Positions 47,083 to 64,000 of a stretch of 64,000 bases of DNA are shown piece after piece (the stretch's first letter is position 1; every line of letters starts with the position of its first letter). Where the stretch lies: the NCBI GenBank assembly GCA_009837355.1, contig VXTR01000056.1, forward strand, positions 589-64,588. The letters are read 5' to 3'. The notes beneath the pieces are model-generated. The model did not search any database. It saw only the letters and a list, made by a program, of their open reading frames with translations, and was not told the origin of the DNA. The position numbers and the translations under genes were made by a program. The stretch is from Chloroflexota bacterium. Its GTDB lineage: Bacteria > Chloroflexota > Dehalococcoidia > Lucifugimonadales > UBA3495.

Positions 47083-47155
47083 GCCCCGGTGGCGCAATTG
47101 GCAGCGCAGCCGATTTGTAATCGGCAGGTTAGGGGTTCGAGTCCCCTCTGGGGCT
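47083..47155 (+). tRNA. tRNA-Thr (anticodon TGT), CCA not encoded
   Basis: GCCCCGG-TG-GCGC-AATTGGCA-GCGC-A-GCCGA-TTTGTAA-TCGGC-AGGTT-AGGGG-TTCGAGT-CCCCT-CTGGGGC-T. Confidence 0.88.
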
Positions 47156-47227
47156 CTTTCAACGGGCTATCCATACAAAACATACGGAGCAACGACGGTA
47201 CGACCGACCATCGAAACAAGGCCACCT

Positions 47228-47315
47228 GGAGGGGTGGGTGAGTGGTTAAAGCCACCAGACTGTAAATCTGGCGCCCTGACGGGCTTCGCAGGTTCGAATC
47301 CTGCCCCCTCCACCA
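47228..47315 (+). tRNA. tRNA-Tyr (anticodon GTA), class II, CCA encoded
   Basis: GGAGGGG..CCAGA-CTGTAAA-TCTGG, variable arm GCCC-tgac-GGGC, GCAGG-TTCGAAT-CCTGC, CCCCTCC-A-CCA. Confidence 0.88.
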
Positions 47316-47318
47316 TTC

Positions 47319-47393
47319 GCCCAAGTAGCTCAGAGGTAGAGCACGTTCTTGGTAAGAACGGGGTCGGCGGTTCGATTCCGCCCTTGGGCTCCA
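47319..47393 (+). tRNA. tRNA-Thr (anticodon GGT), CCA encoded
   Basis: GCCCAAG-TA-GCTC-AGAGGTA-GAGC-A-CGTTC-TTGGTAA-GAACG-GGGTC-GGCGG-TTCGATT-CCGCC-CTTGGGC-T-CCA. It starts 3 nt after the tRNA-Tyr CCA. Confidence 0.88.
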
Positions 47394-47490
47394 GCCACCA
47401 AAACACCCAGGACGCAAATTCCCCGCAAGCGATACATCCCATTGCCCCGCGGGCAGCAACGAAACAAGGAGCAAGGAGTAACTCCCCACC

Positions 47491-48675
<1,185 letters not shown>

Positions 48676-57888: not shown

Positions 57889-58842
57889 ATGTCCGTGCTC
57901 AACGAAAATGAACTCAAGGTGTTCTCCGGCAACGCCCACCCCCAACTGGCCCAGGACGTGTGCCGCTACCTGGGCATCCCCCTGGGCGAGAGCGAAGCGT
58001 TCAAGTTCGCCAACGACAACACCTTCGTCCGCATCCGCGAAAACATCCGCGAGCGCGACGTGTTCATCGTCCAGCCCACCATGGCCCCCACCAACGACAA
58101 CCTCATGGAGATGCTCATCATGATCGACGCCTGCAAGCGGGCGTCCGCCGGCCGCATCACCGCCGTCATCTCCTACTACGGCTATGGCCGCACCGACAAG
58201 AAGGACCAGCCCCGGGTTCCCATCACCGCCCGCCTGGTCGCCGACCTCATCTCCACCGCCGGCGCCGACCGGGTGCTGACCCTGGACCTCCACGCCGGCC
58301 AGATTCAGGGCTTCTTCAACATCCCCGTTGACGAGCTTACCGCCGAGCCCATCCTTTCCAACTACTTCGTGGAAAAGGGCCTGGACGACCTGGTTCTGGT
58401 CGCCGTTGACTTCGGCATCAGCAAGCGCGCCCGGGACATGGCCGAGCGCCTGGGTGTGCCTGTCGCGGTGATTGAAAAACGACGCACCGGCAACAACGAC
58501 CGCTCCGAAACCCTCAACGTCATCGGCGACGTCAAGGGCAAGCGCGCCCTCACCTTCGACGACGAAATCCTCACCGGCGGCACCATCGTCAACGCCGCCA
58601 ACGCCCTGATGGACGCCGGCGTAACCGAAGTCTATTGCTGCGCCACCCATCCCGTCTTCTCGCCCGTGGCCCCCAAGCTCCTCGCCGAAAGCCCATTCAA
58701 GGAAGTCGTCGTAACCGACTCGGTGCCCCTCACTCCCGACCAGATGGTGGGCAACCTCACCGTCCTGTCCATCGCCCCCCTGATGGGCGAAGCCATCAAG
58801 CGCATCCACGAAGGCCGCTCCGTAGGCGAGCTGTTTATGTAA
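57889..58842 (+). CDS. prs: ribose-phosphate pyrophosphokinase
   Basis: ..LKVFSGNAHP.LA..V...LG..LG......F.N.E..V.I.E..R..DVFI.Q.., ..DLHA.QIQGFF.. Confidence 0.95.
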   Translation: MSVLNENELKVFSGNAHPQLAQDVCRYLGIPLGESEAFKFANDNTFVRIRENIRERDVFIVQPTMAPTNDNLMEMLIMIDACKRASAGRITAVISYYGYGRTDKKDQPRVPITARLVADLISTAGADRVLTLDLHAGQIQGFFNIPVDELTAEPILSNYFVEKGLDDLVLVAVDFGISKRARDMAERLGVPVAVIEKRRTGNNDRSETLNVIGDVKGKRALTFDDEILTGGTIVNAANALMDAGVTEVYCCATHPVFSPVAPKLLAESPFKEVVVTDSVPLTPDQMVGNLTVLSIAPLMGEAIKRIHEGRSVGELFM

Positions 58843-58966
58843 CCCTCAGCGGCCCAACGCTGGACATACTGCCGCCGTATCGGTATCATCGGTTCCTACC
58901 ACATACTGCGCCGCGTCGCGCCCGGGGGCAATGGGTCCGCCAGGGGCGGACTGGAGGAGGCCGCGT

Positions 58967-61192
58967 ATGGTCGAAGTCGCCAGCGACTCTACTGACCTGA
59001 TTGCCTGCGTATCCGAATACGTGGACGATACCGAGCAGGTTGACGCTATCCGCGCCGCCTACGACTTCGCCGCCGGCTGCCACGACGGCCAGAAACGGCT
59101 CTCCGGCGACCCCTACATCGTCCATCCGCTGGCCGCCGCCACCATCCTGGCCAACCTCTACCTGGACCCCGACACCATCAAGGCCGCCCTCCTCCACGAC
59201 GTGATGGAGGACTGCGGCGTCCCCGTGGAAGACCTGGAAGAACGGTTCGGCCCCGACGTGGCCCGCCTGGTGGACGGCGTAACCAAGCTCACCCGCGTTG
59301 ACTACCGTCCCCCCGGCGCCAACGGCGTCAGCGCCGCCGACGCCGAAAGTCTCTACGCCGAGAGCCTCCGCAAGATGCTGGTGGCCATGGCCGAGGACAT
59401 CCGCGTCGTCCTCATCAAGCTGGCCGACCGCCTCCACAATATGCGCACCCTGGACGCCCTGCCCGAACCCAAGCGCCGGCGCATCGCCCAGGAAACCCTG
59501 GACGTCTATTCCCCCCTGGCCCACCGCCTCGGCATCTGGGAAATCAAGTGGCAGCTGGACGACTTGGCGTTTCGTCATCTCAACGAAACCCGATACCGGG
59601 AGATCTCCAAGATGCTGGCCGCCCGACGCTCCCAGCGCGAAGCCTACGTCGCCGACGTTGCCAGCCGCCTCCACGACGAACTCATCGACAACCGGCTCAA
59701 CGCCGAGGTCAACGGCCGCCCCAAGGGCATTTACTCCATCCACAAGAAAATCGAGAAGTACGCCGCCGAGGGCAAGGAACTCAGCGACATCTTCGACCTG
59801 TACGCCCTCCGCGTCATCGTTGACGACGTCGCCGACTGCTACGCCGCCCTGGGCGTGGCCCACCGGATGTGGAGTCCCATCCCCGGCCAGTTCGACGACT
59901 ACATCGCAACGCCCAAGCAGAATATGTACCAGGCCTTGCACACCACCGTCATCTGCGACGGCGGCCATCCCCTGGAAGTGCAGATTAAAACCGACGAGAT
60001 GCACCGGGTGGCGGAGTACGGCGTCGCCGCCCACTGGCGCTACAAGGAAGGCACCGGATCCCCCGGCGGACGGGGCCGCTTTGAGGAGCGCATGACCTGG
60101 CTGCGTCAGCTCCTGGAATGGCAGCGCGAGACCCCCGACACCAACGAATTCCTGGACTCGGTGCGCGAAGACCTTTTCCACGACCAGGTTTTCGTCTATA
60201 CCCCCAAGGGCGACATCATGGAACTGGCCACCGGAGCCACTCCCATTGATTTCGCCTACAAGATCCACACCGACCTGGGCCATCGCATCTCCGGCGCCAA
60301 GATCAACGGCCGGCTGGTCTCGCTGGACACCCCGCTGGAAAACGGCGACACCGTGGAGGTCGTGGCCGGCAAAACCGGGCGTGGTCCCTCCCCCGACTGG
60401 CTCAATCCTTCCCGGGGCTACGTGGCCACCAACAGCGCCCGTCAGAAGATTCGCTCCTGGTTCAACCGGCAGGCCCGCAGCGCCAACATCACCCGGGGCA
60501 AGGACCTGCTGCGCCGGGAGCTGCGTCGCATGGGCGTGAAACTGCCCGACCGGGAGGTTATCGAACTGTGCCGCTTCGAGACGATGGAAGACCTGCTGGC
60601 CGCTTTGGGCTCCGGGGAACTCAGCGACTCCGCCCTGGCCGACCGGTTGTCCGAACACCGCAGCAAGGACACCGAAACCGAGGAATGGCAGATTCCTCTC
60701 AAAGGTTCCCAACGCCTGGACAGCCCCACGTCGGGCATTACCGTGCTGGGCGTCGGCGACCTGCTCACGCGCATCGCCGCCTGCTGCAATCCCATCCAGG
60801 GCGACGCCATCATCGGCTTCGTTACCCGCTCCCGGGGCGTCAGCATCCATAAGGTCGAGTGCATCAACGTCCTGAACGAGGACGAAAGAGAGCGGCTGGT
60901 GCCCGTTTCCTGGGGAGAGAAGCAGGAACTCTATCCCGTCCGCGTCCGCATCGAGGCCATCGACCGGGTGGGCCTGCTGCGGGACGTTTCCACCCGGCTG
61001 TCCGAGGACAAAATCAACATCGCCTGGGTGGTTACCCGCGAGAACGACAACGCCACCGTGAGCATGGAGCTGACCATCCACATCGCCGGCCTGCAGCAGC
61101 TCAACCGGGTGTTCTCACGTATCGAGGGCGTCCGCGGCGTGACGTCCGTCAGCCGGGTCACCAGCAGCCCACTGCGCCAGACGGAGCGATGA
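58967..61192 (+). CDS. relA: bifunctional (p)ppGpp synthetase/hydrolase (RelA/SpoT homolog)
   Basis: GGAGGAGG lies before ATG 58967. It has an HD domain (HPLAAA..LHDVMED), a synthetase domain (..YIATPKQNMYQALHTTV..), TGS, and a C-terminal ACT-like domain. Confidence 0.92.
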   Translation: MVEVASDSTDLIACVSEYVDDTEQVDAIRAAYDFAAGCHDGQKRLSGDPYIVHPLAAATILANLYLDPDTIKAALLHDVMEDCGVPVEDLEERFGPDVARLVDGVTKLTRVDYRPPGANGVSAADAESLYAESLRKMLVAMAEDIRVVLIKLADRLHNMRTLDALPEPKRRRIAQETLDVYSPLAHRLGIWEIKWQLDDLAFRHLNETRYREISKMLAARRSQREAYVADVASRLHDELIDNRLNAEVNGRPKGIYSIHKKIEKYAAEGKELSDIFDLYALRVIVDDVADCYAALGVAHRMWSPIPGQFDDYIATPKQNMYQALHTTVICDGGHPLEVQIKTDEMHRVAEYGVAAHWRYKEGTGSPGGRGRFEERMTWLRQLLEWQRETPDTNEFLDSVREDLFHDQVFVYTPKGDIMELATGATPIDFAYKIHTDLGHRISGAKINGRLVSLDTPLENGDTVEVVAGKTGRGPSPDWLNPSRGYVATNSARQKIRSWFNRQARSANITRGKDLLRRELRRMGVKLPDREVIELCRFETMEDLLAALGSGELSDSALADRLSEHRSKDTETEEWQIPLKGSQRLDSPTSGITVLGVGDLLTRIAACCNPIQGDAIIGFVTRSRGVSIHKVECINVLNEDERERLVPVSWGEKQELYPVRVRIEAIDRVGLLRDVSTRLSEDKINIAWVVTRENDNATVSMELTIHIAGLQQLNRVFSRIEGVRGVTSVSRVTSSPLRQTER

Positions 61193-62619
61193 ACCAGGAC
61201 AACCCGTCGGGAGCTTTCGCCATTTCCCGAGCGGTTTTCACCCCCATGGCGGCCAAACTGCTGGTCGCCACGGCGGCGTTCCTCGCCATTCTGCTGATGC
61301 CCACGCCCGAAGGGTTGACGCTGCAGGGACAGCGTTCCCTGGCGGTGATGATCCTGGTGGTCGTGCTGTGGGCCACCGAAGCGATCCACGTGAGCGTTGC
61401 CGGCATCGCCGGAGTGGTTCTGCTGGTGCTCTTCGGAGCCGTGCCCGGCATCGGCGAGGCGGTGTACGGGTTCTCACAGCCCGTGTGCTACTTCCTCATC
61501 GGCATCCTGACGCTGGGGCTGGCGGTGCACCAGTCCGGCCTGGCCGAACGCATGGCAACCTTCCTGATGCGCGGCGCCGTGGGCAGTCCGTACTTGCTCT
61601 ACGTGCAGATGCTCTTTTCCTTTGCCGCTCTCACCTTCGCGCTGCCGTCCGCCAGCACCAGGGGCGCCATTATGGTGCACGTGTACGAGCAGGTGCTGGA
61701 GCAGTGGAACATTCCCCAGGGGCACCCCTTCTACAACGCCACCATGATGGCCATGGGCTGCCTGAACCGGCTGGGTTCCACCGCGCTGCTGGCCGGCGGC
61801 ATTACTCCCGTGGTGGCGTCGGGACTGCTGGGCGATTTCTCCTGGACGCAGTGGTTCCTGATTATGAGCGTGCCGTTTTACGCCAACTTGGTCGTTGGCG
61901 GCGCGCTGCTGTTCCTGTTCTACCGTTCGGGCTTCCGGAACCAGGGCACCGGCGACGCCGCGCCGGTTCTACCCGGCCCCATCACGCCCGTGGAACTGCG
62001 CGCCGGGGCCATCGTAGTCATCACGGCGCTGATGTGGTTCACCGACTTCGCCCACGGGCTGCACCCGGCGGTGCCGGCCCTGATTGCCCTGTGTCTCATC
62101 CTGCTGCCCCGCATCGGCATCCTCACCTGGGGCGAATTCGAGCGGAACGTGGGCTGGACCAACTTCTTCGTCATCGCAACCTCGCTGTCGCTGTCCCACG
62201 CGCTGGTGTCCAGCGGCGCGGCGGCCTGGTTCTCGGAGACGCTGGTGGGCGGAGTATCGCAGTTGGTGTCCTCGCCCATCCTCATCCTGCTGGCGCTGTG
62301 CGTATGCTTTGCGCTGCTGCGGATGCTGTTGCCCAACATCGCCGGCTACCTGGCGCTGGTGATTCCGGTAACCATGGCCGCCGCGGAGTCGTTGGGGCTG
62401 AACCCGCTGGTGTGCGGCTTCGCGGCCGTCGTGGTGGGCGATTCGGCGGTGTACTACGGGGCCGGCGGGACCTCGGCGGTGTTCGTGTTCCAGCGGGCCA
62501 ACATTGCCAACCCGGAGATTTTCCGCTTCGGCATCACGATGACGGTAGCCGTCATCGCCGTGCTGCTGCTGGTGGTGATTCCCTACTGGAACCTGGTGGG
62601 CTATCCGTTGGCGCCGTAG
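61189..62619 (+). CDS. DASS/SLC13-type anion (di/tricarboxylate or sulfate) transporter
   Basis: Its ATG overlaps the relA stop (ATGA). The protein is polytopic, with ..SASTRGAIM.. and ..GGTSAV.. hairpin-loop-like motifs typical of the ion-transporter superfamily. Confidence 0.7.
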   Translation: MNQDNPSGAFAISRAVFTPMAAKLLVATAAFLAILLMPTPEGLTLQGQRSLAVMILVVVLWATEAIHVSVAGIAGVVLLVLFGAVPGIGEAVYGFSQPVCYFLIGILTLGLAVHQSGLAERMATFLMRGAVGSPYLLYVQMLFSFAALTFALPSASTRGAIMVHVYEQVLEQWNIPQGHPFYNATMMAMGCLNRLGSTALLAGGITPVVASGLLGDFSWTQWFLIMSVPFYANLVVGGALLFLFYRSGFRNQGTGDAAPVLPGPITPVELRAGAIVVITALMWFTDFAHGLHPAVPALIALCLILLPRIGILTWGEFERNVGWTNFFVIATSLSLSHALVSSGAAAWFSETLVGGVSQLVSSPILILLALCVCFALLRMLLPNIAGYLALVIPVTMAAAESLGLNPLVCGFAAVVVGDSAVYYGAGGTSAVFVFQRANIANPEIFRFGITMTVAVIAVLLLVVIPYWNLVGYPLAP

Positions 62620-63167
62620 CCCAGCGTCCGAGCGATCAGCAGCAGAATTACCAACGCAATCAGGACCAAGCCGGCCACCGCCAGCCGGATGAAGAACCGG
62701 CGCAGCCGCCCCCGGCGTTGCCGGGCGCGTCGTTGATCGGCGCGATAGTCCCAGGGGCGTCGGGCGCGCCGGCCGTCCCGCCACACGCCGCGCCGCTTCG
62801 TCTTGGCCTCGGCCTCGGCTTCGGGAAAGCCCAGGTTGCGCCCACCGTACCGGCGATACCAGTAGGCCATGCCGGCCCGCACCATGGCCACGTTGACGGA
62901 TTCCCGCCGGCGTCGTCCCGCGTAAATCAGGCCCACCGTGCGCCCGTAGCGGTCGGTGGCAATCACGTCCATGCGGACGGCGCCGCGCCGCACCAGCGAG
63001 GCCAGTTCTTTTCGGGCCTCCGGGCCGTAAGGTTGCGCCAGCTCCGGCGCGTCGATGCCGTAGAGCCGCACCGGGAAGGGCCGGCGCAGGCAGCTGAACA
63101 GCCCGCCGTAGTTCACCACCAGCGAGTCGCCGTCCACCACCCGCCGCACCTTCACCTTGCGGGCCAT
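62601..63167 (-). CDS. thermonuclease (SNase) family protein with Arg-rich linker and C-terminal TM anchor
   Basis: ..VVDGDSLVV..VRLYGIDAPE..QPYG.EA..., ..DRYGRTVG.., ..MVRAGMAYWYRRY.. The C-terminus reads FFIRLAVAGLVLIALVILLLI. Confidence 0.8.
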   Translation of the reverse strand: MARKVKVRRVVDGDSLVVNYGGLFSCLRRPFPVRLYGIDAPELAQPYGPEARKELASLVRRGAVRMDVIATDRYGRTVGLIYAGRRRRESVNVAMVRAGMAYWYRRYGGRNLGFPEAEAEAKTKRRGVWRDGRRARRPWDYRADQRRARQRRGRLRRFFIRLAVAGLVLIALVILLLIARTLGYGANG

Positions 63168-63174
63168 CGACGGG

Positions 63175-64000
63175 CTAGACCGTCAGCGGCGTGTCGTCCC
63201 GGTTGGCCCACTCTCCCATGGATGCGTCGTAGTTCCTGGCGTTCTCGAAGCCGACCAGGCGGAGTACGAAGTTGCCGTGCGCCGCACGGATGCCGGCCTG
63301 TCAATAGGAGTAGGCGGTCTTGTCCGGCGTGATGCCGTGCTCGGTGAGGATTTGCCGGATTTCCGCGGCGGGCTTGAACTCGTGGGTGTTGCGGTCCATC
63401 AGGTGGAACCATTCCAGGTGCACCGCGCCGGGGACGTGGCCGATGCGCTGGTTGCGGTAGTTCGCCGCGGTGCCGTCCCATTCGGCGTCGCTGCGCACGT
63501 CCCACACCACGACGTTATCCCGTACTCCGTCCAATGAACAGGCGGACTTCAGCTCGTCGCCGGTGGCGATGTAGGACTGGTCGGCGCGGGGGGTGAAGGT
63601 AACGGACGCCGGCGGACGGGGCCGGCCGAAGTCGATGGGCTGTCCGGCGTTGACCCAGGCGCGCCAGCCGCCGTTGAGCACCTTGACGTTGCGATGGCCG
63701 TAGTAGCTGAACACCCACCACATCCGGGCGGCGGTGAGACCCTGGGCGTGGTCGTAGGTTACGACGGTGGTATCGTCGCCGACGCCCAGGCTTTCGGCAT
63801 ACGCCTTGAACTGCTCCGGCGTCATCACGTGCTGCCGGTCGTCGGGGTTCTTGGCCCAGTTGTCGGGCACGTGGGCCGCGCCGGGGACGTGGCCCCGCTG
63901 CCAGGCGTCGGCGGTGTTGGCGCAATCCAGGACGACGACGTTGGGGTCATCCAGATGAGCGGCGACCCAGGCCGGGTCGGTGAGGTATTCGGGGTGTGCG
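63175..64000 (-). CDS. two-domain rhodanese / thiosulfate sulfurtransferase (CysA/SseA-like) with in-frame TGA at the catalytic Cys codon; 5' end off the window
   Basis: The frame is open from nt 63999 (..AHLDDPNVVVLDC..GHVPGAAHVPDNW..) to SY-[TGA 63303..63301]. It then continues in frame as QAGIRAAHGNFVLRLVGFENARNYDASMGEWANRDDTPLTV to TAG 63177..63175. That matches the Y-C-x-x-G-x-R active-site loop and C-terminus of Cys homologs. Confidence 0.7.
63256..63300 (-). promoter_or_regulatory. SECIS-like stem-loop immediately 3' of the in-frame UGA
   Basis: On the mRNA, UGA is followed by CAGGC(C)GG-CAU-CCGUGC-GGC-GCACGG-CAACUUCGUACU-CC-GCCUG. The upper stem is 6 bp, the apical loop is GGC beginning 18 nt after the UGA, and the lower stem is 5+2 bp. 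Confidence 0.4.

Follow-up and report, generated by a model that had tools for sequence, protein, structure and literature searches.

How can a rhodanese gene carry a stop codon exactly where the codon for its catalytic cysteine should be? The question arises at the far end of the window, by which we mean the whole 64,000-nt stretch of DNA analyzed here. There, the minus-strand reading frame of a two-domain sulfurtransferase runs through ...GITPDKTAYSY and then meets a TGA (63303..63301). Reading on in the same frame gives QAGIRAAHGNFVLRLVGFENARNYDASMGEWANRDDTPLTV, 41 codons that have no start codon of their own and that end at a TAG (63177..63175), 7 nt before the ATG of the next gene (63167). 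A preliminary description of the locus had reported this arrangement, which the translation reproduces in full, and had proposed from it a candidate selenocysteine sulfurtransferase. The proposal is supported by conservation of the UGA, by constraint on the codons that follow it and by a hairpin specific to the UGA-containing genes. From these comparisons of related sequences, the TGA is very probably a functional recoded codon in a two-domain rhodanese-type sulfurtransferase, with selenocysteine (Sec) as the presumed inserted residue. The features to which we refer are the following, all on the minus strand.

63175..64000, minus strand: coding sequence, with the TGA read through, of a two-domain rhodanese of the thiosulfate/3-mercaptopyruvate sulfurtransferase type; from translation, two PF00581 stretches and PDB alignments
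63649..63975, minus strand: N-terminal non-catalytic rhodanese domain; best Pfam stretch, residues ~9-117 of the window-encoded part
63184..63552, minus strand: C-terminal catalytic rhodanese domain, approximate limits, with the UGA inside; from the 1uar and 3aax alignments, residues ~150-272 including the post-TGA part
63304..63306, minus strand: Tyr codon directly 5′ of the UGA; TAT in 74/74 SAR202-group sequences
63301..63303, minus strand: UGA at the catalytic-Cys position (U-Q-A-G-I-R; UxxG / CxxGxR loop), putative selenocysteine codon; from alignment and conservation
63290..63300, minus strand: 11-nt spacer CAGGCCGGCAU between the UGA and the hairpin; suppressed synonymous variation
63275..63289, minus strand: SECIS-like hairpin; stem conservation and UGA-form specificity
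63175..63177, minus strand: true stop codon, TAG; protein conservation ends at the corresponding stop in all relatives

The coding sequence is 5′-partial. Because the orthologs start MTT..GYAHPEYL, some 8-10 N-terminal codons should lie past the end of the window (64000). When the TGA is replaced by a Cys codon, the 274 residues encoded in the window make up a two-domain rhodanese: Pfam recognizes PF00581 in two stretches of the read-through product (E = 3.8e-34). The product also aligns over its full length with the solved two-domain sulfurtransferases that use Cys (E = 7e-43 to 1e-29), best with 1uar of Thermus thermophilus (E = 7e-43), next best with 3aax and 3hwi of Mycobacterium; the other structures in the comparison are 3hzu, which with 3aax and 3hwi represents the mycobacterial CysA/SseA proteins, and 1e0c, the RhdA of Azotobacter. 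The fold is common to all of them, with an inactive N-terminal and a catalytic C-terminal domain and with the six-residue CxxGxR cradle in the same place. The TGA faces the catalytic Cys of these enzymes, where the preliminary description had put it ('vvyCriaERssH' in 1uar vs. 'aysyCqagiraaH' here), and the post-TGA codons align with their C-terminal strands and helices. The differences lie in the nucleophile codon, which is UGA in the window gene and TGC or TGT in the solved proteins, and in the loop, which reads U-Q-A-G-I-R here and C-R-I-[AG]-E-R in 1uar and 3aax.

Mercaptopyruvate-type enzymes have CG[ST]GVT as their active-site loop. Judged by its residues, the loop UQAGIR belongs with the CxxGxR loops of thiosulfate sulfurtransferases and not with CG[ST]GVT. 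The equivalog model for 3-mercaptopyruvate sulfurtransferase (PRK11493 / NF008557) aligns with residues 9-272 of the 274 and scores 106 bits, below its cut-off of 250. No operon partner is conserved family-wide across the compared loci. In the clade to which the window belongs, a nuclease gene and a transporter gene lie downstream of the rhodanese gene. Upstream, an acetyl-CoA-synthetase-like gene precedes the rhodanese gene at about 36 of the compared loci.

The interruption is shared by the relatives of the window gene. A protein search over 5.8 billion clusters returned 2,955 relatives, of which the best 120 were inspected. All but one of these 120 (232-253 aa, 55-89% identity) terminate with the Tyr that precedes the Cys position; the one that does not, P0035, is a gene call with a frame shift. 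A genome scan, with one genome per GTDB species, gave at least 553 matching stretches, from which 80 loci were kept; these all come from MAGs assigned to Dehalococcoidia, SAR202 or Chloroflexota, among which closed chromosomes of 3-5 Mb are numerous. Closed chromosomes that bear an ortholog include OY760687.1, OZ242258.1, OZ242042.1, and OZ253486.1. In these 80 species-level Dehalococcoidia/SAR202 genomes the catalytic codon is TGA in 86 of 86 gene copies, seven of the genomes having a tandem second TGA-containing paralog ~940 nt upstream. The motif U-Q-[AG]-G is present in every copy (U-Q-A-G in the window gene), and the UGA is invariably followed by C. The TGA form is also found in hundreds of metagenomic clusters. 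Homologs with Cys exist and read TYCQ[AG]GIRAAH where the TGA forms read [ST]Y-U-Q[AG]GIRAAH, so that the flanks are conserved on both sides of the variable residue. The preliminary description had suggested asking whether orthologs carry TGA or Cys in this column and whether the hairpin covaries; the column is TGA in all copies, and the hairpin is kept in 65 of 72 distinct TGA forms, with one compensatory change of a pair.

The conservation extends past the TGA. A tail of ~41 codons, Q[AG]G[IL]RAA...EWAN..DTP..., follows it in the relatives, and similarity is lost beyond the second stop. Over a set of 74 non-redundant sequences, pN is 0.16 and pS a near-saturated 0.61 in the 33 codons past the hairpin, hence a pN/pS of 0.26, as compared to 0.37 for the 219 codons upstream of the TGA. 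By this measure of substitution, the post-hairpin tail is at least as constrained as the upstream codons and is under purifying selection. The low pN/pS, together with conservation that ends at the second stop, argues that the tail is translated in the rhodanese frame. The family-typical character of the post-TGA codons, pointed out at the outset, is upheld by these values and by the alignment to the solved rhodaneses.

What could allow the ribosome to pass the UGA? In E. coli fdhF and fdnG, the SECIS is an in-frame hairpin just 3′ of the UGA, with the upper stem-loop 11 nt on and with a small loop whose first base is G. The bacterial rules, as embodied in the fdhF minimal SECIS and the bSECISearch consensus, put the apical loop 16-37 nt from the UGA. 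In the window gene a hairpin starts 11 nt past the UGA, its 5′ arm CCGUGC (63289..63284) and 3′ arm GCACGG (63280..63275) enclosing a GGC loop (63283..63281) that begins at nt 18 past the UGA. The element lies within the catalytic-loop codons Ile-Arg-Ala-Ala-His-Gly. The spacing and the G-first small loop are as in fdhF and fdnG; the 6-bp stem, the 3-nt GGC loop and the lack of a bulged U are not.

The stability of the hairpin does not by itself single it out. The isolated element has a folding energy of -8.0 kcal/mol, and the 69 nt that follow the UGA fold no better than shuffled sequences (z = +0.8). A competing fold of the window sequence is better by 1.3 kcal/mol, and the conserved hairpin has an ensemble probability of ~9%. 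RNAalifold did not recover the hairpin and returned a meaningless consensus of four pairs, and Rfam has no family that matches the element. As the folding energy is not above chance, the significance of the hairpin comes from the comparison with relatives only. The preliminary description had drawn a two-tier stem-loop. Its upper tier (CCGUGC/GGC/GCACGG, with the loop starting 18 nt after the UGA) holds, whereas the lower tier, with 9.7 enclosing pairs vs. 8.5 in a codon-shuffled control, is no better than that control; we therefore count the upper hairpin and the 11-nt spacer only.

Among relatives, the signature of selection on the RNA is strong. The deficit in synonymous entropy is 0.99 bit in codons -1 to +8 relative to the UGA, and 0.17 elsewhere (Mann-Whitney p = 1.6e-6), and this is the top 9-codon stretch of the 224 possible. 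The pS is 0.10 in the hairpin codons vs. ~0.6 in the rest of the gene, a six-fold reduction in synonymous diversity. Individual codons tell the same story. The Tyr codon at -1 is TAT in all 74 sequences, whereas TAC dominates elsewhere in the gene; in more distant TGA forms the position is TAC or CAC, so that TAT is a feature of the SAR202 group only. In the spacer, codon +1 is CAG in 73 of 74 sequences, +3 is GGC in 66 and +4 is ATC in 71. In the hairpin, Arg is CGT in 68/74, a codon rare elsewhere in the gene, the two Ala codons are GCG (68/69 and 74/74), whereas the gene otherwise prefers GCC, and His is CAC (62/62).

The six pairs of the stem are formed in 95.4% of the cells of the comparison, vs. 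17-62% in controls where the 3′ arm was slid. The SECIS core CGUGC-GGC-GCACG is embedded in the codons for I-R-A-A-H, and one pair appears to have been repaired by a double amino acid change: in one clade (L052, L057, L060, L062, and L076) a G-C pair has become U-A by way of Ala to Ser and His to Asn. The covariation amounts to a single pair in four distinct sequences and probably to one evolutionary event, the stem overlapping a strongly conserved peptide. Seven TGA forms lack the standard hairpin (Arg AGA or CGA, His to Asn). In its place they have a hairpin of 8 bp that lies 7 nt farther downstream and carries a GUN loop; in this they too are unlike the SECIS of fdhF and fdnG.

Could the conserved codons reflect merely the conserved peptide? 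The Cys homologs serve as a control. We compared 74 distinct metagenome homologs that encode Y-C-Q-[AG]-G-I-R-A-A-H with Cys. The six-pair stem is possible in 65 of 72 distinct TGA forms and in 2 of the 74 Cys forms (Fisher p = 1.4e-30). Codon usage in the Cys forms is relaxed: Arg is CGC in 28, CGG in 18, CGT in 11 and AGA in 9, Ala is spread over all four codons, and His is CAC in 39 and CAT in 33. Since the Cys forms, with the same peptide, have free codons and almost no stems, the element travels with the UGA and not with the peptide. The core CGUGC-GGC-GCACG is kept in all of the more distant TGA forms compared (32-47% identity), whose genomes have GC contents of 28%, 36%, 60%, 69%, and 72%, and the GCG GCG codons are retained even in the genome of 28% GC. 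As far as these codon comparisons go, selection acts on the hairpin as RNA, and within the family the hairpin is a specific feature of the UGA forms; by the same comparisons, selection maintains the UGA and the reading frame after it as well. The contrast in codon freedom between Cys and UGA forms of one peptide offers a simple and strong way to test whether a conserved protein motif contains a SECIS.

The genetic code itself is not at issue. TGA ends seven other confident genes of the window, including those for EF-Tu and RelA/SpoT, and the rhodanese TGA is the sole in-frame TGA of the window with coding-like sequence on both sides, which argues that TGA is not reassigned. No further convincing coding-like in-frame TGA was seen in the window, nor a convincing conserved one in the 80 flanks, where the candidates were antisense ORFs or adjacent genes that share a frame.

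As to the machinery for Sec, neither ARAGORN nor Rfam finds a tRNA-Sec in the 64-kb window, and selA, selB, selD, and tRNA-Sec were not found in the window or in 1.7 Mb of related flanks. A tblastn search of the window and 81 loci with approximate E. coli SelA, SelB, and SelD probes returned only EF-Tu and another GTPase, a weak negative with such probes. About 10 kb from one ortholog, at L052:17-111, ARAGORN reports a tRNA-SeC, which we consider a false positive: its acceptor stem contains mismatches, its variable arm does not pair, and Rfam has no hit there even at E <= 10. Two related genomes are informative. The SAR202 bins bin87 and bin22 have, respectively, three and two copies of COG1921 (SelA), and one copy each of COG3276 (SelB) and COG0709 (SelD) (Table S4 of Slaby et al., 2017, PMC5649159). 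Bin87 is the genome of one of our loci (L007, MPNC01), whose ortholog is 88% identical, and bin22 that of another (L051, MPMM01). We infer the machinery in the window's own genome, since the positive evidence is this published COG table for just two related genomes.

How do other explanations of the TGA fare? The simplest, that a Cys codon was recently mutated to a stop in this genome, that the gene is a pseudogene or that the sequence is in error, had been set out in the preliminary description as the alternative to Sec. It can now be dismissed, the chance of its being right being close to nil: the TGA recurs in all 86 copies from 80 species-level genomes that were assembled independently of one another, and hundreds of metagenomic clusters have it too; of the 120 best homologs, 119 stop at the same place, and the tail has a pN/pS of 0.26. 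That the TGA is a genuine stop, yielding a 240-aa product without a catalytic loop and leaving the 41 codons as untranslated remnants, is how the databases read it, NCBI and JGI annotating the orthologs as 232-234-aa 'sulfurtransferase' proteins. This reading is very improbable, given that the tail evolves as a coding sequence at saturating pS, that conservation ends at the second stop in every lineage, and that the post-TGA codons match the C-terminus of solved rhodaneses and have no start codon of their own.

If the UGA is read through, the residue need not be Sec. A near-cognate or suppressor tRNA could insert a standard amino acid, Cys or Trp, the hairpin serving as a general stimulator of read-through. 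The UGA is always followed by C, a context in which termination is weak; the hairpin, besides being short, has no bulged U such as the E. coli SECIS has; and the window and the 1.7 Mb of flanks gave no Sec machinery. These points fit such read-through, which we nevertheless regard as unlikely, if somewhat less so than a genuine stop. The hairpin conforms to the bacterial SECIS rules in its 11-nt spacing and in having G first in a small loop. The TGA and the hairpin have been kept over phyla and from 28 to 72% GC, which is difficult to account for if ordinary Cys, whose codon is one mutation away, would serve as well. The COGs for SelA, SelB, and SelD are present in two genomes that bear orthologs (PMC5649159), and in the published entries the family has stood since 2005 as a selenoprotein with homologs that use Cys. 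Insertion of Sec is the reading we prefer.

Under Sec insertion, the 6-bp GGC-loop hairpin, 11 nt past the UGA, would act as a bacterial SECIS. It would recruit SelB-GTP-Sec-tRNA(Sec) to the ribosome, and Sec, presumably delivered by SelB, would be inserted at the UGA in place of termination. Translation would then go on for 41 codons and complete the catalytic domain, placing Sec at the base of the six-residue cradle U-Q-A-G-I-R. The enzyme might take a sulfane sulfur onto selenium as an Se-S intermediate and pass it on, in a transfer of the thiosulfate type; this part of the scheme is speculative. Equally speculative are the candidate grounds for using selenium, which include nucleophilicity at a low pKa, resistance to irreversible oxidation, and a role in selenium trafficking.

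A Sec rhodanese of this kind is already catalogued, and what is added here is incremental. A rhodanese-related sulfurtransferase selenoprotein of COG2897 (SseA), with the motif UxxG, was predicted from the Sargasso Sea metagenome as one of 15 new selenoprotein families, with three sequences and a SECIS figure (Zhang, Fomenko and Gladyshev, 2005, PMC1088965). It is listed again in the GOS study of 2008, under cd01449 and COG2897 (PMC2398784), and in two reviews, represented by MQG53192.1 in 2022 (PMC9312934) and, as 'rhodanese-like form 4, UxxG', by MCY3690685.1 in 2026 (PMC13188914). The preliminary description was thus right that rhodanese-like selenoproteins had been predicted from marine metagenomes. 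The window gene matches the published family in the features that those accounts describe: it is a two-domain protein of the SseA type, with a UGA paired with the catalytic Cys and a UxxG motif. Also in common are a stem-loop with a small G-containing apical loop right after the UGA and an origin in uncultured marine bacteria. On these described features the gene probably belongs to the COG2897/UxxG family, the accounts offering no feature that would separate the two.

The three published accessions AACY01016424, MQG53192.1, and MCY3690685.1 are not among the cluster members listed in our search. MQG48921.1, of the same accession series as MQG53192.1, is a SAR202 ortholog, which is suggestive only. 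A different model, NF041203 (rhodanese_LYCAU; form 3, 'rhodanese-related (seleno)protein'), was considered and rejected, as it scores 35 bits against a cut-off of 115 and matches the N-terminal, non-catalytic domain only. NF041203 proteins share with the window gene a rhodanese fold with a Sec/Cys active site; they are single domains of ~126 aa with a CxU motif, whereas the window gene has two domains and UxxG.

What is new concerns the distribution of the family, its SECIS and its annotation. The passages on the COG2897/UxxG family in the published accounts give three to eight sequences and no taxonomic assignment, whereas here the gene is fixed in at least 80 Dehalococcoidia/SAR202 species and is sometimes in tandem. 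In our literature search, no paper connected this selenoprotein with SAR202. The additions are fixation across SAR202/Dehalococcoidia, tandem Sec paralogs in some genomes, a SECIS core that is common over a very wide GC range and embedded in catalytic-loop codons, and systematic mis-annotation in the databases. The orthologs are entered by NCBI and JGI as truncated proteins of 232-234 aa, some with spurious N-terminal extensions, and hundreds of public entries (e.g., MCI0860081.1, NQW23686.1, PKB78682.1, and HIN06229.1) are consequently 'sulfurtransferases' without an active site. A metabolic reconstruction of SAR202 or Dehalococcoidia that is built on such entries mis-describes the enzyme.

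We know of no Sec rhodanese that has been studied biochemically. A rhodanese with a selenium nucleophile would hold its sulfane sulfur on an Se-S bond, and the well-sampled orthologs, together with an obvious Cys control group, make a clean test case for why Sec is kept. The Sec rhodanese may be lineage-wide in the abundant dark-ocean and sponge-associated SAR202/Dehalococcoidia, at times tandemly duplicated. The fuller proposition, that it is a fixed trait of SAR202/Dehalococcoidia in which the SECIS core and the active-site loop have constrained each other from 28 to 72% GC, we put forward tentatively, as a possibility that has somewhat less than an even chance of being correct. If the trait is indeed lineage-wide, selenium would be an obligatory micronutrient for the sulfur-transfer chemistry of SAR202/Dehalococcoidia.

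The orthologs of the window's rhodanese gene are misannotated in the public protein databases. Their deposited records (P0036, P0118, P0060, P0308, P0292 and P0301) are annotated as 'sulfurtransferase' or 'hypothetical protein' and are truncated (232-234 aa), the last residue in all six being the Tyr that precedes the UGA. In two of these records the N terminus is spuriously extended (319 aa in one, 265 aa in the other). A further match, P0035, is a frame-shifted gene call of 187 aa that is 96% identical across half of the query.

The genes downstream of the rhodanese were named through synteny with the related locus L001.

Downstream neighbours of the rhodanese gene
62601..63167, minus strand: staphylococcal-nuclease-like protein, starting 7 nt past the rhodanese stop
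60859..62619, plus strand: Na+/sulfate-type (DASS) symporter
58931..61192, plus strand: RelA/SpoT
57889..58842, plus strand: PRPP synthetase

This arrangement is common only to the window's own clade (about 25 loci), and no functional link between these neighbours and the rhodanese is apparent.

Stop codon usage was tallied over the whole window from a crude GC3-based gene list: of the 29 high-confidence ORFs so obtained, 14 end in TAG, eight in TGA and seven in TAA. At a G+C content as high as that of the window (64%), TGA usually dominates among stop codons. The preference for TAG may be a trait of the lineage or may be connected with the use of selenocysteine (Sec). TGA serves as the stop of EF-Tu, which follows a cluster of ordinary tRNAs.

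47083..48675, plus strand: tRNA-Thr, tRNA-Tyr and tRNA-Thr, then EF-Tu

A 95-nt tRNA-SeC(tca) called by ARAGORN in a related genome (L052:17-111), about 10 kb from an ortholog, was rejected as a false positive: its acceptor stem is mismatched, and the segment had no match in Rfam even at E <= 10.

Within the coding sequence 3' of the UGA, codon +21 (about 63238..63240 in the window, minus strand) is GCC in all 48 sequences that have Ala there. It is an isolated frozen synonymous site, some 60 nt from the UGA. Its possible pairing partner is the GGC in the spacer that separates the UGA from the hairpin.

Seven related genomes have a second rhodanese, a paralog that precedes the ortholog by about 940 nt on its upstream side (L027:9738, L037:9741, L043:9741, L045:1508, L046:9772, L047:9131 and L067:9755). 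Its Cys codon is TGA, as in the ortholog, and from the TGA-encoded residue onward it reads U-QAGLRAAHGVFVL...; the CCGUGC-GGC-GCACGG hairpin is identical to the ortholog's. In the window's own genome such a paralog would lie beyond 64000, outside the window.

TGA-form rhodaneses of only 32-37% identity are found in marine genomes of low G+C content: L165 and L166 (36%), and L167 and L168 (28-29%; GCA_002694895.1). All four keep the catalytic-loop codons CGU GCG GCG CAC, which are very unusual for genomes so rich in A+T. Their retention there suggests that the Sec form and the SECIS that goes with it had a single origin or spread horizontally.
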